A stretch of 36,291 nt of DNA from a virus. The notes beneath the pieces were generated by a model. It worked only from the letters and a program-made list of their open reading frames with translations. It had not been told where the DNA came from and did not search any database. The position numbers and the translations under genes were made by a program. Shown here in pieces: positions 1-21,463 of the stretch. Every line of letters starts with the position of its first letter. The stretch's first letter is position 1. The stretch lies in the UHGV virus genome UHGV-0200858; one strand, written 5' to 3'.

Positions 1-30
1 GTACCCATCAACACACGAGAGGATACAACG

Positions 31-300
31 ATGAACATTACCAAAGCAATCCATAACTATGCTCGCCGCCGTGGAATCGAACTTCAACTCGAAGATGAGC
101 AGGTTAGATTCTGGGAGATAGAACAAGATTGTGAATGGATGTTCAGCTATTCGATTGCTCAATGTGGTTGCTTGTTCTGGAAAGGTAATGTGTATCTTCC
201 TCGCGATATTAAAGAAGAACTTCCGGCGATGATTGGCACCGATAAGAAGTTAAAGGAAGTCTTAGATTTTATCTACAAAGAGTTTATTAGCAAGAAGTAA
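31..300 (+). CDS. hypothetical small protein (89 aa)
   Basis: ORF with a good Shine-Dalgarno (GAGAGGA) upstream of the ATG, followed by a hairpin terminator; no recognisable domain. Confidence 0.5.
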   Translation: MNITKAIHNYARRRGIELQLEDEQVRFWEIEQDCEWMFSYSIAQCGCLFWKGNVYLPRDIKEELPAMIGTDKKLKEVLDFIYKEFISKK

Positions 301-1275: not shown

Positions 1276-2968
1276 GTTTGGAAATGGTATGAAAACTAAA
1301 CTGTATTCGTATATTCGCTTCTCGTCTATGCGTCAGAATGATGGTTCGAGTTATGAACGACAAATCAGGATGGCTAGAGAGATTGCGGCAAAGTATGACC
1401 TTGAACTGGTAAATGATTATCAGGATCTGGGTGTATCTGCGTTTAAGGGTGCTAACTCTAAAACAGGTGCGCTATCTCGTTTCCTTGATGCAATTGGTAG
1501 ATCCGTTCCTGTTGGTAGCTGGCTATTCATTGAAAACTTGGACCGTTTATCCCGTGCCGATATTGTCAGTGCGCAGGAGTTGTTCCTTTCGATCATTCGT
1601 CGGGGGATCACTATCGTTACGGGTATGGATAACAAGATCTACTCGCTGGATACTGTTACCGCTAACCCGATGGACCTGATGTTCTCCATCCTTCTATTCA
1701 TCCGCGGTAACGAGGAAAGCCAGACTAAGCGCAATCGTACTAACTCAAGCGCATTGATTAAGATTAAAGCTCATCAAGAAAATCCACAAAATCCGGCTGT
1801 TGCAATCGAGGAAGTTGGAAAGAATATGTGGTGGACTGATACCACATCTGGTTATGTGCTTCCTCATCCGGTCTTCTTCCCTATTGTTCAGGAGGTTGTG
1901 GAATTACGGAAGAATGGACGTTCAACCGCCGAAATACTGGATCACCTTAACGAGACATATACACCACCACCAGCGGTTAGTAATAAGAAACATTCAAAAT
2001 GGTCACGGGCAATGGTTGAAAGATTGTTCCATACCCGCGCTTTGATTGGTATCAAGGAAGTCTCGGTAGATGGCGTTAACTATGAGTTAAACAATTATTA
2101 CCCGCGTGTTATTGATGACCCTACGTTCTATCACCTTAAGAAAAATATTGGTGCTAGAGCATGGAACTTCGGAGACAAGGAAGAAGTTAAACCGATCCCC
2201 CTGCTTAGTGGTATTGGCCTATTGAAATGTGATCATTGCGGTTGCGCTATGGTTAAAGTGAAGGGAACGAACAAACGTTCTGACCAGTATCGTTATACAT
2301 GTGATGCGACCCGTTCACGTAGACTTGATTGCGAGCATCCAAACTGGAGTTTTCGAGGTGATCAATTAGAGAAAGCTGTATTGCAATTGCTGGCTGATAA
2401 AATCTGGATTGCTGAGGATAAGGCTAACCCGGTTCCGGCGTTGAAAGTACAGATTGATGAAATATCACGCAAGATTGATAACCTGATCGCCCTTTCTGCT
2501 ATGACAGGAGCAACGAAGGAACTAGCCGATCAGATTACTGCCCTTAATAGCGAGCGTGAAACACTCTACAATCAGATTAAGATGGCAGAAGAGGAAATGT
2601 ATTCTGTAGACTCTCAAGGCTGGGAGAAGCTCGCAGAATTTGATTTAGAAGATGTTTACAATGAGGAACGAATCAAGGTTAGATTCAAGATTAAGCAAGC
2701 TCTAAAGCGGATCGGGTGTAGCAGGATTGACAGAAACAAAAACTTGTTTGTACTGGAATACATCGATGGAAAGACCCAGAGAGTTGTAATAGAAAATTCA
2801 AGAGGAACGAGGAAAGGACAAATATTTGTCGATTTGAAGACTATCAATGATAGGCAGATTCTGGAAAGTAACGGGCTTGTTTTGCATCCATGTTTAGACA
2901 TGCTGACAGATAAAGACTGGAAACCAGAAGAGGAAATACCAGGTCCATTACAGGAATTTGGAATTTAA
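1274..2968 (+). CDS. large serine recombinase (resolvase/invertase N-terminal catalytic domain + recombinase domain + zinc ribbon + coiled coil)
   Basis: N-terminal YSYIRFSSMRQ...R motif typical of serine recombinase catalytic domain; central Cys cluster CDHCGC...C...C (zinc ribbon); C-terminal coiled coil; 564 aa is typical of the large serine recombinase family. Track start is a TTG; first ATG is 15 nt downstream (about 1289). Confidence 0.85.
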   Translation: MFGNGMKTKLYSYIRFSSMRQNDGSSYERQIRMAREIAAKYDLELVNDYQDLGVSAFKGANSKTGALSRFLDAIGRSVPVGSWLFIENLDRLSRADIVSAQELFLSIIRRGITIVTGMDNKIYSLDTVTANPMDLMFSILLFIRGNEESQTKRNRTNSSALIKIKAHQENPQNPAVAIEEVGKNMWWTDTTSGYVLPHPVFFPIVQEVVELRKNGRSTAEILDHLNETYTPPPAVSNKKHSKWSRAMVERLFHTRALIGIKEVSVDGVNYELNNYYPRVIDDPTFYHLKKNIGARAWNFGDKEEVKPIPLLSGIGLLKCDHCGCAMVKVKGTNKRSDQYRYTCDATRSRRLDCEHPNWSFRGDQLEKAVLQLLADKIWIAEDKANPVPALKVQIDEISRKIDNLIALSAMTGATKELADQITALNSERETLYNQIKMAEEEMYSVDSQGWEKLAEFDLEDVYNEERIKVRFKIKQALKRIGCSRIDRNKNLFVLEYIDGKTQRVVIENSRGTRKGQIFVDLKTINDRQILESNGLVLHPCLDMLTDKDWKPEEEIPGPLQEFGI

Positions 2969-3004
2969 GCGGCCTAAATCGACGTATAACGAGCTAAAAC
3001 AGTT

Positions 3005-3030
3005 AAGGGGTACAGATGTACCCCTTTTTA
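3005..3030. terminator. bidirectional hairpin terminator between convergent genes (approx)
   Basis: AAGGGGTACA GAT GTACCCCTT hairpin flanked by A-run and T-run, between the recombinase (+) and the 3042..4226 (-) gene. Confidence 0.6.
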
Positions 3031-3041
3031 ATTTAATTGCG

Positions 3042-4226
3042 TTAGGCAGCGTCTAAAGGGCTTAAATCAAGTTCTAGGTCTTCCGGTTCCAAATCAGCTA
3101 ACTGTGCATTCATCCACTTAGCTAAATCTTCATCGGTTACGACAAAATCCGGTTTTTCTTCCCATTCATTAAGATACATCGGACGATCTGGATTTGCTGC
3201 GATATATTCATTAATGAAGTTTAATGCTTTCTTGAGAGTTTTAATCGGGCGTGTTTCCGTCCATCCATCCGGTACATCATGTTTTGAGGCAGTCTTACCC
3301 TTAACATGAATCTTTAACCCTTTCTCTAAGTCGATTGCTTGCCATCCCTTTTCAAACAGATGATTGAATATCAATTCATGTTTGTATGTGGATAATTTGG
3401 CTTGTTGTTGCATTCTCTTTTTAGAGTTGGAGGCGAAACCGATTTTAATAAATTCATCTCCTAATTTCTGAATATAGAGATAAGTCGGACGTGTCTTGTC
3501 AATTCTTCTTAGATTATATTCACCTGTTTCTAATGAACGTTGGTTTGAAAGGCAATCTGGACAAATCAGGATTCCACGGTCGCAAGGTTCACGGGTAGTT
3601 AAATCCCAATCCCCATGATGCGGACAATTACAGCGCAAGAGTGTCTCTCTTACTCCCTTCTCTTCTGACAACCAACAAACGAAGGTGTATCCGAATTCTT
3701 TACACAATTCCTTAATCTGTGCTTCTCTCTTAGCTCTCAATTCAGTGAGCGTATTACATCCGTTTCTACGAGCCAGATTGCTCTCTTTGGTGCAGCATGA
3801 ACAGTTTAAATTTCTACGGAATGCCAGATTAAGAGGGATAGTGAATTCTTCGTTGTGATTCAAGCAGAGAAATTTTGCTTTGGTTCCTTTGACGTGATTG
3901 TATTCACCATCCCAACCTAAAAACTGTTTCCCTTCCTGTTTCCCTCGTTCGGTTAGCTGGATTTTATATCCTTCCTCATTCCTTTTAAGGCTTCCCCCAT
4001 TGATTTGATTTAACTGTTTCAGTGCATGAATGCTGGAAAGTCCGGTAGGTTGATATGACACCTGAAAACGGGCTTCTACTCCTGATACATACGGTAAAAC
4101 AAAACCATCGAAGGTTAATCCGTGTTTCTCACACTGTTTAATGATTCTGGCTTGCACTTCTTCCGGTGTCTTCTGGTTTGGGTGAGTCTTAACAAAAACA
4201 ATCTCGTTTGCAAATGCTAGTTTCAT
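3042..4226 (-). CDS. GIY-YIG-like (T5orf172-type) domain protein with N-terminal Cys/His zinc-ribbon-like repeats; putative homing-endonuclease-like nuclease
   Basis: C-terminal half contains YLYIQKLGDEFIKIGFASNSKKR...E motif resembling GIY-YIG/T5orf172 fold; upstream CxxC/CxC/HH clusters (LNCSCC, RCNCPHHG, CPDC); paralogous to the 4381..4950 product. Confidence 0.55.
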   Translation of the reverse strand: MKLAFANEIVFVKTHPNQKTPEEVQARIIKQCEKHGLTFDGFVLPYVSGVEARFQVSYQPTGLSSIHALKQLNQINGGSLKRNEEGYKIQLTERGKQEGKQFLGWDGEYNHVKGTKAKFLCLNHNEEFTIPLNLAFRRNLNCSCCTKESNLARRNGCNTLTELRAKREAQIKELCKEFGYTFVCWLSEEKGVRETLLRCNCPHHGDWDLTTREPCDRGILICPDCLSNQRSLETGEYNLRRIDKTRPTYLYIQKLGDEFIKIGFASNSKKRMQQQAKLSTYKHELIFNHLFEKGWQAIDLEKGLKIHVKGKTASKHDVPDGWTETRPIKTLKKALNFINEYIAANPDRPMYLNEWEEKPDFVVTDEDLAKWMNAQLADLEPEDLELDLSPLDAA

Positions 4227-4279
4227 AGTAGTTTCCTCAAAAATTATAAGTTCACTACTATTTATTGAAGAGAATTATC

Positions 4280-4310
4280 TCACTATTGCATCCTCACTAA
4301 CTTTGATATA
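4280..4310 (+). promoter_or_regulatory. sigma70-like promoter candidate for the 4381.. operon (approx)
   Basis: TTGCAT - about 17 nt - TATAAT upstream of the 4381 start, in the divergent intergenic region. Confidence 0.35.
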
Positions 4311-4380
4311 TAATCCGCGACCCTAAAGTTACAAACCAACCATATTGAGGGTTTTGCCTATAAGTTAAAGTGAGGTCTAT

Positions 4381-4950
4381 ATGATTCCAGTAATGGCTAA
4401 AGATATTGTTTTTACTCCTAAATCATCCCGTGCTGTAACTCCACCAGCATTAGAACAACGCATTCTTACTCACATCAAAGATAATGACTTACCGTTAGTC
4501 TTTCATGGCTTTCTGGGTGAGTTTAAAGGGCTTCACACGAGAATTGCTCTTACATGTACTCGCTGCGGTGATAGAGCCGACAAATCAGCTACTAACCTGC
4601 TTAATGAAGGCAAACGCTGTGTATGTTTCAAGAGTGATTATTTTCAATATAAAGCGGGTGTACCATATCTCTATGTGATGCAATCCGGCGATATTGGTAA
4701 ATTTGGTGTAACAAAATCGATTATCAAACGTAGGGTTAATCTGGGCTTACGTAATCCCGGTCATAACTTTGATATTGTCTATGCTCGTGAAATGCCATCA
4801 ATGAAACATGCGCTAGCCACTGAGCGAACAATAAAGAGAATGTTGGATGTGGGTATAGGCGGGATTGAATACGGCAAAACTGAAACATTCCACTACTGCA
4901 ATAAATCACTAAACAATATAAAGAATATTGCAAGTGTGGAGTGGAACTAA
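4381..4950 (+). CDS. GIY-YIG-like (T5orf172-type) domain protein with zinc ribbon (189 aa)
   Basis: CTRCG...CVC Cys cluster followed by YLYVMQSGDIGKFGVTKS...RRVNL...E motif; stop overlaps the start of the downstream helicase gene (TAATG). Confidence 0.55.
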   Translation: MIPVMAKDIVFTPKSSRAVTPPALEQRILTHIKDNDLPLVFHGFLGEFKGLHTRIALTCTRCGDRADKSATNLLNEGKRCVCFKSDYFQYKAGVPYLYVMQSGDIGKFGVTKSIIKRRVNLGLRNPGHNFDIVYAREMPSMKHALATERTIKRMLDVGIGGIEYGKTETFHYCNKSLNNIKNIASVEWN

Positions 4951-6440
4951 TGCAAGATATTAACATTCATTTTCAAGATTACAGTTTCGTTAAGGTTGAA
5001 TGCTCTCCTTCTATCGGAATGGAATTAAGAGATTATTTCTCGTTTGAGGTTGAAGGGGCTAGATTTAGCCCCCGCTACAAATATTCCGGCTGGGATGGAA
5101 AGATAAGACTGTTTACGCATGAGAACACCTTACCAATCGGATTATTGAAAACATTGGGTATCTTCGCTAAAAACATGGGCTATAGCGTATGGGTAGACCC
5201 CAGATTGCTTGAGAAGGAAGATGTAACCAAAGAATCAATTGATTCATGGATTGACTCTTTAGAAGTGTATTCCGGTAGCAATAAAATCAATCCTTACTGG
5301 TATCAAAGAGAGGCAGTATTTCAGGGTATCCATAATCGCCGTAGAATGCTGGTTCTTCCTACCAGTGCCGGAAAGTCATTGATTGCTTGTATGCTGTCTC
5401 GTTGGTACTTAGAGAACTACACCGGAAAGATTCTAATCATTGTCCCGACTACATCGCTGGTGGTTCAAATGAGGGATGATTTTGTCGATTATAGGCTATT
5501 CCCTTATGAAGCAATCCATACAATGATGAGTGGTAGCGGGAAACATCCGGGAGACAGGTTAATCACTGTTTCAACATGGCAATCAGCTTGCAAGATGCCT
5601 CCTGAATGGTTCCGACAATATGGAATGTTGATAGTTGATGAATCGCATCGTGCCAGCGCAAAGAATATCACCAATATCATCAACGGAATGAATCATTGTC
5701 AGTTTAAAATCGGTATGACTGGTTCCCCGAAAGAATCAAAGTGCCATTTAATGCAATATGTCGGGTTGTTCGGTGATATTCAGAAGATAGTAGCAATCAA
5801 GCAATTGATGGATGACGGACAAGTTACCCAGCTTAAAATTAATGCTCTCTTCCTTAAGTACAAAGATGAAGAATGTAAAGCAATGCGGGGCAAAGATTAT
5901 CAGGAAGAGATTAAATTCATCAATGCTCATAAGGTAAGGAATAAACTGGCTTGTAATTTGGCCTTAAAACTCGCCAGGAAGCAAGAAAACGTATTTTTGA
6001 TGTTCCGGTACTCTAAGCATGGAAAAATGCTTTATAATGCGTTACAGCGCGTTTACGATAAGGTTTATTACGTTTCCAGTGAGATTACCACCGCCGAACG
6101 CGATGCCTTAAAGAAAATGGCTGAAAATGAGAAAGGATTGATTGTAGTTGCCTCCTATGGTGTTTTCTCTACTGGCGTTTCAATTAAGAATCTTCATCAT
6201 GTCATTTTCGGTCATCCAGTGAAGGAATCAACCATTGTCCGGCAATCAATAGGACGTGCTCTTAGGAAACATGGTAGTAAAGCAATTGCGTATGTGTGGG
6301 ATTTGATAGATGTGATTTGTTCGAAAGACAAGAAAGGAAAATATACACGCAAGAATTATGCTTTAACTCATGGCCTCCAGAGAATCAATACTTACATATC
6401 AGATCGCTTCGAATATGTAACGAAAACAATCGAGATTTAA
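4941..6440 (+). CDS. uvsW: SF2 DExH-box helicase, UvsW-like
   Basis: Walker A LPTSAGKS, DExH box IVDESH, motifs ILIIVPTT, VYYVSSE, IVVASYGVFSTG, QSIGRALRKHGSK; overall layout and several motifs recall T4 UvsW (from memory, not searched). Track start is GTG; likely ATG start at about 4950 overlapping upstream stop. Confidence 0.8.
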   Translation: MELMQDINIHFQDYSFVKVECSPSIGMELRDYFSFEVEGARFSPRYKYSGWDGKIRLFTHENTLPIGLLKTLGIFAKNMGYSVWVDPRLLEKEDVTKESIDSWIDSLEVYSGSNKINPYWYQREAVFQGIHNRRRMLVLPTSAGKSLIACMLSRWYLENYTGKILIIVPTTSLVVQMRDDFVDYRLFPYEAIHTMMSGSGKHPGDRLITVSTWQSACKMPPEWFRQYGMLIVDESHRASAKNITNIINGMNHCQFKIGMTGSPKESKCHLMQYVGLFGDIQKIVAIKQLMDDGQVTQLKINALFLKYKDEECKAMRGKDYQEEIKFINAHKVRNKLACNLALKLARKQENVFLMFRYSKHGKMLYNALQRVYDKVYYVSSEITTAERDALKKMAENEKGLIVVASYGVFSTGVSIKNLHHVIFGHPVKESTIVRQSIGRALRKHGSKAIAYVWDLIDVICSKDKKGKYTRKNYALTHGLQRINTYISDRFEYVTKTIEI

Positions 6441-6483
6441 TAAATAGGGGCTTTAATGCCCCTTTATTCTACGGAGATTAAAA

Positions 6484-6747
6484 ATGATTAGCTTTAAACG
6501 TTTTTTGGTTGAGGCCGCTATTGACGGTTTTATGAGTAAGATTTATTCTTGTAATACTATCGAGGGATTAAATGAACTTGAGGCATATTATGAGAAGCGC
6601 AAGAAAGAAACAGAATTGAAACCTGCTGATGATATTTCGATCCGTGATGCCATCGCCGGACGACGCAAGCAACTGGAAGCGGAGAACGAGCCGGATGAGG
6701 AGCCAGAAGAGGATTTTTCTATCATCAATTTGTGCCAGATAAAATAA
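6484..6747 (+). CDS. small acidic protein, possible UvsW.1-like helicase partner (87 aa)
   Basis: Immediately downstream of the helicase, acidic C-terminus (EAENEPDEEPEEDF); position and size recall T4 uvsW.1; followed by terminator. Confidence 0.35.
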   Translation: MISFKRFLVEAAIDGFMSKIYSCNTIEGLNELEAYYEKRKKETELKPADDISIRDAIAGRRKQLEAENEPDEEPEEDFSIINLCQIK

Positions 6748-6791: not shown

Positions 6792-7145
6792 TCAGCCATT
6801 CCATCGAGATTTTTTCGACCTGCTATCAATATGCGTAAAGGTTTTATATTTGCCTAGACCATATTGATTGGGATATTTCCCGTTAAGATAAGCATGGACA
6901 ATATCAGGAGAAACACCCTTGATCACAATGTCACACGCTCGACCGCGAACATGGTAGCTATTGGTTGCCCCGCCTACATTCTTGTTATGAGTCGGACAAC
7001 GGTTCCCACTGTTAATAATTACTGGTTTCCCGAAGTGTTCTCGTACATCCTCAAGAATTACCAGTAATTCAGCATCGATAGTATCATAATCACATTTTCC
7101 GCATTTACATTTGAATTCCTTGCGGGAAAAATGCTTACTTAACAT
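6792..7145 (-). CDS. endolysin, peptidase M15 family (L-alanyl-D-glutamate / VanY-like zinc peptidase)
   Basis: Motifs SRKEFKCKCG, SGNRCPTHNKNVGGATNSYHVRGRACDI and FTHID match the H-x6-D ... H zinc site of M15 peptidases; no signal peptide. Confidence 0.8.
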   Translation of the reverse strand: MLSKHFSRKEFKCKCGKCDYDTIDAELLVILEDVREHFGKPVIINSGNRCPTHNKNVGGATNSYHVRGRACDIVIKGVSPDIVHAYLNGKYPNQYGLGKYKTFTHIDSRSKKSRWNG

Positions 7146-18034: not shown

Positions 18035-21000
18035 TCATTTACAGGATTTAATAGCCGCAAGTTCAGCTTTAACAGCTTTCAACTCTTCGTTCATCGCATC
18101 ATACTTAGTCGTTAATTCCTGAAAGGCTTTCACGAAAAGAGCATTGATACTAGAAACAGAAATAGTTTTAATTTCTCCTGGATTTTCGGTATCTCCATCG
18201 CTGCAAACGTGCACAGCTTCCGGCATAACTTTTTCCACATCTTGAGCAATGACACCTAATTCGCGTCCAACCACTGTATCATCAGAAAGTGATTTAACTT
18301 TATCGTAGGAATATACGGTTAAGCTGTTTAATTTATCCAGCGCACCTTCTTCCAATTCTTCCTTGTTGATCTTAAGACGTTCATCAGATCGAATATGCAC
18401 ATCGTTAAAGCTACCGTTACCCGGCGTGTAAAAGAACCCATCGTGATGGAACTCAAATACAGCTTGAGGGTGTCCGTTATCAGGTGAGTTTTCCGCAGAT
18501 CCAACACGAATAATTGCTTGTCCCCAATTGTTAGGGATACGACGCATACCAAAATCGACGGCAGTTGTATACCCTTGATTGGTGATTAAACTTCTTGCTT
18601 TAACAATCGGATAATAACAGTCTTGTCCAACATAGCCATGATCGACGAATATTGGCGCTTCCACTCGCCACTGATTACCCCAATCACCTGGTTGACTAGC
18701 GGTCCAACGTTCACCATGAACATATAATCGAGCGTTATTAACATGAACCATTTCGACGCCTTTTGGACTTAATGCAATATCCCCAGCGTTCGTAAGATTT
18801 ATCGCGGCATTAGTAGCATAGCTATAGAACGCTAATCCATTATCACCACCGCCTTTACCAATATACCAGTTGTTGTTGTCAGCACACGTACCCAACAAAT
18901 ATACAGACGAATCACCACTTTCGGCATTCATGATAATTGCATCAGATCCGCGATTAATTTTAAGTTTACCAAAGAAGGAGTTTTTAATGGTATTATCACC
19001 CAATCGTTCAAATTCTGCGAAAAATCCTTTTGAGTCACGAAGACTTAAAACGTTATTTCGACCTGTATTGCTTGCCCCCCAATGGACGAGTTCCATATAG
19101 TCCATAGATTGACGAGAACCAGCTTTAAAGAAAAGATTGTCCTCAAGACGAGTGCTACCATCAATCCCCAGATGTAAACACCGAGCGGTTTCAGTACCAC
19201 CTAAATATAATCCACCGTCCGCAAAATCATAGCTGAATGGTCTGCGATTATTCCAACTACCAAAAGAATCTTTTAAATCGGTAGTAAGAATATGGAAGCT
19301 AGAACCATCATTGCGTAACATCAAACCATAGTTACCGCCTTTGACAGCCAAACGAGCATTTTCAGACAATGCGACTTCGCTATTCATTACAATTTTCTGG
19401 CCTTTACCACCAGTAATATGTAATTCACCATCTTCAATCAGGTTTATCGAGTTTTGACCGTTATCGTTCCACCAAATAAAATCTTTGGTCTGCGCATCAC
19501 CGAAGCCAAACCAACCATTACGAACATCTGTACCAGTTCGATAATCAAAGAAGTTTAAGTGGCATGATTCGTTTGGACCACGACGAAAATCAATTGCTGA
19601 GTTTCCACCTAAACCGCCATCAATGGTCATTCTACGAATATGCAAACCGGACGATGCCGAAAGCAATAATTGTTGGTTAACATCTTCATAACCAGTTGCA
19701 AGGCGATATGACTGATCATCAACAGTTTCATGCCAGATTGTAGCTGGTGCAGAACTACGGAAGCGACGCAACATTTTCTTAGCATTTGTTTGTTGTTCGT
19801 TCAAATGCTCAATGTCATATTGGCCTTGATGGTTTCCGCCAAAATTTAACGTCCCACGGTTGCTAAAGTTATTAAACGATGAAATGTTAAGAGCATCAAA
19901 AATTTCATCTGCAACAGGTTTTTCACCGCCCAGGTATTCAGGAGTATCCAACAGGTTTAAAGAAACACCACCGGAAGAAACTTGATATTCTGCTAAAACA
20001 AATCCTGTATGTGCACCATAGTAAGCGTAAAGATCGTAATTATCACCATCGGTAGGAATTGCGCAAAAATATTGTTCGTAATACCAAATGCTATAATAAG
20101 CATTGAATACAACACCTTTCGGGCTATTGTTGCCGCAACGGATCACCAGTTCAATAACATTGGCTTGTCCATTCTGTCCGACGTTATAACCGTTACCACC
20201 CACTAAACGGATCTTAGCCGTACGACCGTGTTGTTGTGGCATTGTCAAAGTGCCTAGTTTAAACCAACCGCCCTCGACCCCAAAATTAAGCGTCTTCTGG
20301 AAAAGTCGGTCAATTTCTGCTTTCGAATATGCGCCAATTTCGGCAGGAGTAGGTTTATCACCCTCGTGATACATGCGGTGAGAATATGCCAAATGACCCA
20401 ATTCATCATAGCCGTATGTTCTTACAGTAGCATGTGGATTAGACCCATAAGTGAACTCGAAGCCACGAGCATGATTAACACCGGATGGATGTGGAACATG
20501 CAAGATCATAGCAATATGATCAGCTAGATCATTGGTACGGAATGCACCAAAGTAATCAAGATTACGCGCACTTGGATCATCAAAATAGTTTGCGGTCTTA
20601 GACAGCAAATAACCATCAGTGTAAGTGTTTACGTGTTTTTTGATGTACTTACCGTCACTCGATCCGTCGGCTGCATCAATACGGCTTTCTAAGCGCGCCA
20701 GTTCAGAATCAGTGTAAGACTTGTTATTGTCAACTTTGCTATGAATTGCCGTATTTTTGGCTTCAACATCACGGGTTAATGCTGCGACGTTATCCGCTGC
20801 CTCTTGCTTATTGGCTGCAATCACACCAGTAAGGTTATTGTAAGTGTCGGTTAATTGATTTTCCGCATAAGTTTTATTATCAGCGATAGTGCGATCAGTC
20901 TCGGCCTTAATCAAATCAACTTTGTCATTGATTGCTTTGTCATTGATTGCGATGGTTGCATCAGTACGGGATTTAATATCATCAACTTTTTTATTGATGC

Positions 21001-21463
21001 GGGTGTCCAGTTCCTGAGTTGCTACAGCAGCCGCATTTTTATTAGCGGTGATGGTATCGGATAATTCAGATTTAACACCAGCCAGTTCGGAAGCTGCTTT
21101 ATTTTTATTGGCTTCGATTGTCGCGTCGGTTTCGCGTTTAATTACATCAACTTTATTGTTAATTTCTGCGTGGTTGTTGGCAATAGTAGAATCGGTAGTT
21201 TGTTTAATTTCATCTACTTTAGCGTGAATATTGCGGTCGTTTACTGCAATTGTGCTATCTAATTCTTGTTTGTTAGCATCAACTTTAGATTCTAGTGCCG
21301 CGTGAGTTTCAGGAGAAACAGAGATTTGAACTACTTCATGATCTCGGTCTTTGGTGAAAATAACATGGTCTTTAAGGTTGATTGCTACCTCACCGACCTG
21401 TAATTGTTCCGGCGTTGGTTTTTTGCCAGAAACACTAGTTCGTTTAAATTGGATTGATTGCAT
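18035..21463 (-). CDS. side (L-shaped-type) tail fiber with C-terminal S74-family intramolecular chaperone domain (1142 aa)
   Basis: N-terminal tail-fiber anchor-like motif (KKPTPEQLQVGEVAIN), tandem about 22 aa repeats (xVDxIKxxTDxTIAxN), C-terminal SDERLKINKEE ... LGVIAQDVEKVMPEAV motif characteristic of self-cleaving intramolecular chaperone domains of endosialidases and T5 pb1. Confidence 0.75.
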   Translation of the reverse strand: MQSIQFKRTSVSGKKPTPEQLQVGEVAINLKDHVIFTKDRDHEVVQISVSPETHAALESKVDANKQELDSTIAVNDRNIHAKVDEIKQTTDSTIANNHAEINNKVDVIKRETDATIEANKNKAASELAGVKSELSDTITANKNAAAVATQELDTRINKKVDDIKSRTDATIAINDKAINDKVDLIKAETDRTIADNKTYAENQLTDTYNNLTGVIAANKQEAADNVAALTRDVEAKNTAIHSKVDNNKSYTDSELARLESRIDAADGSSDGKYIKKHVNTYTDGYLLSKTANYFDDPSARNLDYFGAFRTNDLADHIAMILHVPHPSGVNHARGFEFTYGSNPHATVRTYGYDELGHLAYSHRMYHEGDKPTPAEIGAYSKAEIDRLFQKTLNFGVEGGWFKLGTLTMPQQHGRTAKIRLVGGNGYNVGQNGQANVIELVIRCGNNSPKGVVFNAYYSIWYYEQYFCAIPTDGDNYDLYAYYGAHTGFVLAEYQVSSGGVSLNLLDTPEYLGGEKPVADEIFDALNISSFNNFSNRGTLNFGGNHQGQYDIEHLNEQQTNAKKMLRRFRSSAPATIWHETVDDQSYRLATGYEDVNQQLLLSASSGLHIRRMTIDGGLGGNSAIDFRRGPNESCHLNFFDYRTGTDVRNGWFGFGDAQTKDFIWWNDNGQNSINLIEDGELHITGGKGQKIVMNSEVALSENARLAVKGGNYGLMLRNDGSSFHILTTDLKDSFGSWNNRRPFSYDFADGGLYLGGTETARCLHLGIDGSTRLEDNLFFKAGSRQSMDYMELVHWGASNTGRNNVLSLRDSKGFFAEFERLGDNTIKNSFFGKLKINRGSDAIIMNAESGDSSVYLLGTCADNNNWYIGKGGGDNGLAFYSYATNAAINLTNAGDIALSPKGVEMVHVNNARLYVHGERWTASQPGDWGNQWRVEAPIFVDHGYVGQDCYYPIVKARSLITNQGYTTAVDFGMRRIPNNWGQAIIRVGSAENSPDNGHPQAVFEFHHDGFFYTPGNGSFNDVHIRSDERLKINKEELEEGALDKLNSLTVYSYDKVKSLSDDTVVGRELGVIAQDVEKVMPEAVHVCSDGDTENPGEIKTISVSSINALFVKAFQELTTKYDAMNEELKAVKAELAAIKSCK
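20684..21301 (-). repeat. in-frame tandem coding repeats in the tail fiber N-terminal shaft (approx)
   Basis: Protein shows 8 or more consecutive repeats of the pattern N-K-x-x-x-D-x-x-I-x-x-K-V-D-x-I-K-x-x-T-D-x-T-I; corresponding DNA shows repeated GCGATGGT / GTTGATTTG-type units. Confidence 0.6.

Follow-up and report, generated by a model that had tools for sequence, protein, structure and literature searches.

The UHGV virus genome UHGV-0200858 (36,291 nucleotides; the whole stretch was analysed and is referred to here as the window) carries two divergently transcribed genes between a serine integrase gene and a gene for a UvsW-like helicase, and raises the question of whether such a pair represents homing endonucleases or a nuclease system used in defence. 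Gene A (3042-4226, minus strand, 394 amino acids) and gene B (4381-4950, plus strand, 189 amino acids) are separated by a spacer of 154 bp (4227-4380), and the stop codon of B runs into the start of the helicase gene. A first-pass annotation, made from the letters of the sequence, had described this layout (the positions, the divergent transcription from a shared intergenic region and the translational coupling of B to the helicase through a TAATG overlap), and it agrees with the open reading frames (ORFs) found here, the overlap lying at 4948-4952 (plus strand). We report that A and B add two divergent new members, found in an unusual host element, to a nuclease family that is known and has recently been characterised, and that, as far as sequence comparisons reach, their most likely role is that of homing or competition nucleases.

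Profile searches place both proteins as distant relatives within a described family of homing-type phage proteins, in which CapR zinc-finger modules are combined with a T5orf172/GIY-YIG nuclease domain. The CapR DNA-binding domain, typified by a CxxC...CxC motif and related to the T5orf172 homing endonucleases of phage ICP1, was defined by Netter et al. 2021 (PMC8096241), while Barth, Dunham and Seed 2023 (PMC10448857) described CapR modules arranged in repeats, recombination between these repeats, the turnover of homing endonuclease genes (HEGs) at cognate sites and the placement of HEGs at the edges of exchanged modules. HEGs of this architecture (CapR repeats followed by T5orf172) are common in T4-like, T5-like and ICP1 phages. 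Both A (E 5.6e-40, residues 18-343) and B (E 7.4e-19, residues 38-182) matched the "endonuclease" group PHROG 681. The CapR homology domain (Pfam PF21817, cutoff 24.2 bits) was recognised in two stretches of A (37.3 bits) and in a B-like allele from a sister prophage (L005, 26.1 bits), the A allele of another sister (L001) passed the MUG113 model (PF13455; 26.4 vs 22.3 bits), and other sister-prophage alleles gave sub-threshold matches to T5orf172, MUG113 or GIY-YIG. At E <= 1e-3 the A profile retrieved 2586 cluster representatives (50% identity); no NCBIfam model matched A or B, and the B-family profile produced only chance-level matches among PDB sequences.

The structural models tell the same story. 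AlphaFold predicted both proteins with good confidence (mean predicted local distance difference test score, pLDDT, of 85 for A and 83.5 for B), both models display the beta-beta-alpha-beta-alpha catalytic fold of the GIY-YIG nucleases (the order found in the nuclease domain of A), and the best structural matches of both were nucleases of this superfamily. A Foldseek comparison against viral models (BFVD) recovered 207 phage proteins (E <= 1e-3) that share the full-length architecture, and their names include CapR-homology, zinc-ribbon, GIY-YIG, homing endonuclease and T5 Orf172. The proposal of the first-pass annotation that the two genes encode GIY-YIG-superfamily (T5orf172/MUG113-type) proteins with a nuclease-like fold and zinc-ribbon modules was thus upheld by profile searches and structure prediction alike.

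Conservation of the putative active site points in the same direction. Nineteen homologues of A and 15 of B could be aligned from among 5.8 billion proteins (all of them from E. coli or Salmonella), and none of the nuclease motif residues varied among 15-17 sequences of the A family or 10-11 of the B family, whose identity elsewhere is just 30-45%. Hence the tyrosine, lysine/glycine, arginine and glutamate positions named in the first-pass annotation are not chance resemblances; cysteine clusters precede them in both proteins, as it had noted. The nuclease domain of A (amino acids 245-345; 3192-3494, minus strand) contains YLY (249-251), KIG (261-263), R271, E301 and GWTET (321-325), with Y251, K261, G263, R271, F291, W295, D299, E301, G321, E324 and T325 invariant. 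The corresponding domain of B (amino acids 94-171; 4660-4893, plus strand) contains YLY (96-98), KFG (107-109), R117, E137, E148 and GKTETF (165-170), and its motif residues (Y96, Y98, K107, G109, R117, E148 and E168 among them) remain invariant in homologues of identity down to 39%. Since hhalign found no significant similarity between the B family and I-TevI (probability 0.1%), the glutamate equivalent to E75 of I-TevI is assigned solely from the order of secondary-structure elements.

Upstream of the nuclease domain, A is built from three CapR-like helix/beta repeats, the first of which has no zinc ligands, and B from one. The two zinc-ligand clusters of A (3552-3866, minus strand) lie at amino acids 121-145 (C121/H124...C142/C144/C145) and 199-225 (C199/C201/H204...C222/C225), within repeats 2 and 3, and follow the variant patterns C-x2-H...C-x-C and C-x2-H...C-x2-C, with C201, H204 and C222 invariant among homologues; the cluster of B (C59-x2-C62...C80-x-C82) is the CxxC...CxC motif of CapR itself. 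Protein A continues beyond the nuclease domain into an acidic C-terminal tail (3045-3188, minus strand) that ends in DLELDLSPLDAA and was modelled with low confidence (pLDDT 50-63). The final 4-29 codons of this tail fall in the flank that is conserved across prophages (left homology boundary at 3052-3129), and most A alleles, Salmonella included, keep the stretch ...EDLELDLSPLDAA (residues ~376-394; 3045-3100), the remaining protein being ~30% identical. Within it, DLELDL bears what we take to be a loose resemblance to the QLxLxL clamp-binding motif.

The first-pass annotation had also regarded A and B as paralogues with a common N-terminal module, and this relationship is real but remote. 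In a direct BLASTP comparison only the N-terminal 59 amino acids matched (E 0.006), and comparison of the two family profiles (hhalign, probability 97.6%, E 3e-12) paired B first with A residues 1-45 (4092-4226, minus strand; residues 1-47 of B) and then with A residues ~190-329. B thus resembles A minus the stretch between repeats 1 and 3 and minus the C-terminal tail. The common module (GLTFDGF / VFHGFLGEF) holds an invariant glycine-phenylalanine pair in each family (G41/F42 in A, G43/F44 in B), and in the DNA the two N-terminal coding regions form a 34-nt inverted repeat (4194-4227 and 4380-4413, 74% complementary). A further reading of the repeats within 2960-5000 was rejected, as these simply mirror the paralogy of A and B.

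We assessed the evolutionary behaviour of the locus by comparing the window with 25 related loci (designated by L numbers) over the interval from the recombinase gene to an M15-family peptidase gene. The content of this interval ranges from no more than 4-29 codons of the 3' end of A (L008) or a fused A remnant (L007), through an A-type gene with an acidic ORF (L006) or with an acidic ORF, a B-type gene and the insertion sequence (IS) IS1 (L005), to A + B + uvsW (window, L001-3, L017-23) and A + B + uvsW + uvsY + gp27 fragments (L013-16, L024); in one case (L027) it holds an IS and a nucleotidyltransferase-like gene. At least five cassette-like alleles of A (27-36% amino acid identity) are set between DNA flanks that are 90-97% identical, with sharp homology breakpoints (3052-3129 and 4187-4224) inside the last and first codons of A itself. 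B occurs in at least three alleles (~42-45% identity), two of which have identical last 23 residues and a conserved spacer, the third (L005) differing in the last 6. The DNA-binding middle of A is its most variable part (20-22% mean identity, vs 40% in the nuclease domain), and comparisons inside single allele classes show purifying selection on both genes (ratio of non-synonymous to synonymous substitution rates, dN/dS, of 0.10-0.16 for A and 0.10 for B). The A allele of L013 lacks any cysteine cluster and has its N-terminal module in duplicate, which is the kind of "beads on a string" shuffling that earlier work on the family describes.

The helicase gene next to B has a foreign origin. Together with its neighbour uvsW.1 it is an import from a T4-like (Krischvirus-like) phage, as the two genes (4950-6718) show 75-76% nucleotide identity to Krischvirus (the RB49 group) and the match ends at 6718. 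The helicase itself (4950-6440, plus strand, 496 amino acids) matches the Pfam models UvsW_N (E 8e-36), ResIII and Helicase_C, and the uvsW.1 homologue (6484-6747, plus strand, 87 amino acids; Pfam UvsW-1, E 5.5e-22) closes the T4-like segment. B is present at every intact uvsW locus. Exactly at the position of B, 4 nt upstream of uvsW, the Krischvirus G5211 carries an unrelated seg-like GIY-YIG HEG, and RB49 has none there. Phage homologues of B (23-32% identical) are likewise free-standing: the one in RB16 lies between gp14 and gp15, that of GEC-3S is flanked by gp32 and frd, and T5-like phages have them too; the gp32-frd position in GEC-3S is presumably the place held by segG in T4.

Taken together, we consider it probable (at roughly 0.6, judging from sequence comparison and structural models) that A and B are two independent, free-standing, active and sequence-specific nucleases of the GIY-YIG-type homing class. 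A specific DNA sequence would be read by the CapR-like repeats at the N-terminus, of which A has three and B one, and the C-terminal GIY-YIG-type domain would then cut near the bound site. When a cell contains related phages or prophages, recombinational repair from the nuclease-carrying copy would then spread or keep the gene and the DNA adjoining it. B acts like the HEG partner of the imported uvsW/uvsW.1 module, co-transcribed and translationally coupled with it, and would travel with it and help to maintain it. A would mark the boundary between the prophage backbone (the integrase) and the variable cargo, being replaced repeatedly by very different alleles via recombination in its own conserved ends. 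The comparisons establish the family, the fold, the conserved active-site residues, the purifying selection, the turnover of cassette-like alleles, the independence of A and B and the T4-like origin of uvsW; cleavage, target sites and homing are inferred. Because the spacer keeps its sequence where the DNA-binding repeats have been exchanged entirely, the targets probably lie outside it, which argues against a purely autoregulatory role.

How well does the distribution of the genes fit homing? Presence is sporadic at one locus among close relatives: out of 55 complete E. coli genomes with a related prophage locus, 13 carry A + B + uvsW and four a double deletion, the rest having other A alleles or remnants. 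A homing endonuclease beside a replication gene, as proposed by the first-pass annotation, remains the best-fitting reading for B, given the linkage to uvsW and the seg-like HEG at the same site in G5211; the comparison of presence and absence beside the helicase, however, shows the homing signature only in part, as sporadic presence was found and every empty locus turned out to be a deletion remnant. In the "empty" loci, known from four IMG/VR contigs and as many complete genomes, ~6 first and ~4 last codons of A are joined at a GGCAGCGT microhomology, and the spacer and the last ~35 codons of B are also kept; more generally, every locus without an intact A keeps the last 4-29 codons of A, and the B-less L004 type keeps the last ~35 codons of B. 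Because gene remnants are retained at a microhomology, these loci record loss and not the absence of invasion, and L004-type loci were rejected as naive empty sites, the remnants and the junction microhomology marking them as deletions.

Several observations therefore weigh against the homing interpretation, and we collect them here. No naive, uninvaded cognate site was found among the related loci, so the classic presence/absence signature of homing is missing; for the site upstream of uvsW the naive state occurs only in a different genome type, RB49. The 5' end of uvsW is about equally diverged from G5211 and RB49, with no co-conversion gradient in the alignment (megablast homology to G5211 begins at the uvsW ATG and that to RB49 183 nt further in, which is suggestive only). 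Scans of phage records, IMG/VR, metagenomes and GTDB turned up no phage in which uvsW is preceded by a B-like gene, and B-family profile scans (IMG/VR, metagenomes and GTDB species representatives) returned the same prophage lineage or nothing. Strong purifying selection at a fixed locus is unlike what is expected of a purely selfish HEG after fixation and fits a domesticated function equally well. As for the family assignment, both proteins score below the gathering threshold of Pfam T5orf172 (PF10544, 20 bits; A 16.0, B 15.1), so that membership of the GIY-YIG superfamily rests on profile, structural and motif evidence, and B falls just under that of CapR (21.9 vs 24.2 bits).

A domesticated prophage defence (i.e. 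superinfection exclusion) is the main alternative. Here the lysogen would express A and/or B, maybe alongside the UvsW that it has captured, and T4-like (Krischvirus) phages entering the cell would be cut or derailed; the changing alleles of the DNA-binding repeats would then be the trace of an arms race against targets in phages. The locus is indeed an integrase-proximal accessory site with alternative cargo in related prophages, a hypervariable DNA-binding region contrasts with a conserved nuclease core, selection within alleles is purifying, and targets are probably external, the DNA-binding domains changing while the spacer is conserved. Moreover, the interval repeatedly holds Krischvirus-derived DNA (uvsW, uvsY and, in L013, a gp27 fragment of 97% identity), and GIY-YIG/T5orf172 proteins with defence functions exist: PD-T4-3 was among the structural matches, the A allele of L005 had a weak match to PD-Lambda-1 (E 0.005, over ~20-45 residues), and ICP1 has turned a T5orf172 nuclease, Odn, against an element that competes with it. 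However, PADLOC-DB v2 gave no significant match for A, B or their alleles (none at E <= 0.1 for A, B and the L001, L003 and L005 (B-like) alleles; the helicase hit generic helicase models only), close homologues do not occur outside this lineage of prophages, the more distant homologues belong overwhelmingly to lytic phages and not to bacterial defence islands, and the module is frequently deleted, deletion and degeneration variants being found among the related loci. We thus regard defence, and the arms race that it entails, as rather unlikely.

Somewhat less probable still is an extended form of this idea, in which A, B, uvsW and uvsW.1 (with uvsY and the gp27 N-terminal fragments in sister prophages) make up an island, put together from DNA captured from Krischvirus, that excludes T-even phages. 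In that case the nucleases would cut incoming T4-like genomes, the hypervariable zinc-finger repeats would track phage targets, and UvsW expressed by the lysogen could collapse the R-loops needed by T4-type origins. If this were true, homing-type nucleases would be weapons of temperate phages against virulent competitors and not selfish passengers.

That A and/or B act as DNA-binding regulators, in the manner of CapR or I-TevI, with a vestigial nuclease domain and with the divergent spacer or uvsW under their repression, seems to us quite improbable. CapR is a repressor derived from this very family, I-TevI represses its own expression, and the 154-bp spacer from which the two genes diverge is conserved and has a TATAAT box; nevertheless, neither family shows any variation in its nuclease motif residues, whereas CapR has no nuclease domain, and a spacer that remains ~80-87% identical when A and B exchange their DNA-binding repeats for versions of ~20% identity is hard to square with an operator located there. 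Finally, an obligate two-component A + B nuclease system, which the first-pass annotation had offered as a means of defence or anti-defence and which draws on the two genes being adjacent, divergent and paralogous with an N-terminal module in common, can be dismissed as highly improbable on distribution. L006 has an A-type gene without B or uvsW, a single B allele is found beside unrelated A alleles, at least three in number (window, L001, L003), and a second B allele accompanies a fourth (L013). In some relatives a third member of the family instead lies upstream of the integrase gene, A and B do not co-vary, the uvsW types (83% vs 95% identity) assort independently as well, and neither protein matches PADLOC defence models.

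Seen against known systems, the interpretation of A and B as homing-class nucleases finds its closest counterparts in ICP1. Gp165, Gp174, Gp121, Gp53, Gp130 and their relatives have the same N-terminal CxxC...CxC modules and the same C-terminal T5orf172 domain; like A and B, they are also free-standing beside replication or structural genes, they undergo shuffling and deletion of modules between repeats (cf. B as A minus the stretch from repeat 1 to 3), and they likewise occur as unrelated alleles of one class at cognate sites and at the boundaries of exchanged modules. As family, architecture and evolutionary behaviour have been published and are modelled in Pfam and PHROG, the A/B pair is not a new kind of system. 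What sets it apart is the carrier (a temperate, integrase-bearing prophage of E. coli/Salmonella and not a lytic phage), the cysteine-less first repeat and the conserved acidic C-terminal tail of A, the L013 allele without any cysteine cluster, and an identity of only ~14-32% to the phage members of the CapR/T5orf172 family.

More distant parallels concern one half of the architecture or the fold only. Seg proteins and I-TevI share with A and B the GIY-YIG catalytic fold and an intergenic position directly upstream of a conserved gene, but their nuclease domain is N-terminal (the reverse of the order in A and B), their DNA-binding modules are different and sequence similarity is not detectable. 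The CapR of PLE has the zinc-finger DNA-binding module in common with A and B and has no nuclease domain, while Odn of ICP1 has the T5orf172 nuclease domain in common with them and demonstrates that such proteins can be put to use against competitors; unlike these two domesticated proteins, A and B retain both parts of the ancestral HEG architecture. The likeness to the structure-specific GIY-YIG nucleases SLX1 and At-HIGLE, eukaryotic repair enzymes with a RING/PHD partner domain, is one of fold only (13-18% identity).

The pair is carried not by a lytic phage but by a temperate prophage of E. coli, whose integrase is of the serine type. The left 7 kb of the window matched (at ~91% identity) chromosomal prophages in 58 of the 5426 complete E. 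coli genomes; these sit in ycdX, beside csgG/ycdZ/ycdY, and sister prophages are found in codB or hicB. The prophage family thus uses at least three attachment sites (ycdX, codB, hicB), its serine recombinases being 74-99% identical (L001, L005, L007), and the start of the window (1-45) seems to be the ycdX junction. No phage record resembled the whole element in nucleotide searches, the region 2900-5000 had no match in 50,697 phage records, leaving the cassette with no close relative among them, and a plasmid collection likewise gave no match. The left border of the variable locus is the large serine recombinase gene (1289-2968, plus strand; Pfam Resolvase/Recombinase/Zn_ribbon_recom), which is separated from gene A by a bidirectional terminator-like hairpin (3005-3026) kept in all related prophages; the right border is the M15-family (endolysin-like) peptidase gene (6792-7145, minus strand), with a flank identity of 94-98% from 6796 on.

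Within the spacer, a TATAAT box (4306-4311) faces B, and the sequence remains 80-87% conserved even where the bodies of A or B have been replaced or deleted; a scan for sigma-70 consensus promoters called no site in 4227-4380 (the -35 criterion was unmet), and promoter-like sites were overall unenriched. Gene B starts at 4381, with a GAGG box 6 nt upstream. The RefSeq start of B orthologues is the second methionine (185 amino acids, MAKDIVF...; cf. L001:6369-6381 and window 4381-4395), and we favour the form of 189 amino acids because the upstream ATG has a GAGG box and the MIPVMA N-terminus is kept in homologues down to 39% identity. The TAA of B (4948-4950) overlaps the ATG of the helicase gene (4950-4952) in ...GGAACTAATGCAAGAT; a mechanical ORF list starts this gene at a GTG (4941), and RefSeq relatives and T4-like homologues start at the ATG (MQDI...).

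Related prophages hold further material of the same kinds. Full-length uvsY is found in L013-16 and a 55-amino-acid uvsY remnant in L003, and L013 (8574-9120) has two tandem fragments of the gp27 N-terminus (PF09097; 82-89 amino acids). The first of these shows 96.8% DNA identity over 279 bp to the gp51/gp27 junction of Krischvirus G5211 (77% for the second), which implies a very recent transfer, and the fragments may serve as an assembly decoy. In the window itself, a segment (~18213-20600) of the ORF at 18035-21463 (minus strand) has 81-84% DNA identity to the distal subunit of the Krischvirus long tail fibre and is, by this identity, a second mosaic link between the prophage and T4-like phages. 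A third member of the nuclease family (348 amino acids; L003:3007-4053 and L018:578-1624), with three CapR repeats (E 1e-28) followed by T5orf172, lies upstream of the recombinase in some sister prophages, so that their integrase genes are flanked on both sides by CapR/T5orf172 nucleases. In L005, IS1 occupies the position otherwise held by uvsW, and in the IMG/VR prophage L027 (3207-4768) an IS-type transposase (347 amino acids) and a 187-amino-acid nucleotidyltransferase-like ORF replace the A/B cassette.

In a temperate prophage of E. coli/Salmonella, the locus cleanly illustrates, as a case from nature, the idea of "nucleases at the boundaries of genetic exchange". To this it adds one nuclease gene whose unrelated alleles, five or more, have been swapped between conserved ends, and a second nuclease tied to a uvsW module from T4-like phages, along with evidence of a recent flow of DNA from Krischvirus to prophage. 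Alleles that have a nuclease core in common and differ in their zinc-finger repeats form a ready panel for learning how CapR repeats read DNA, and an inducible E. coli prophage offers a tractable setting in which the homing of T5orf172 HEGs can be set against a part in phage-phage competition.

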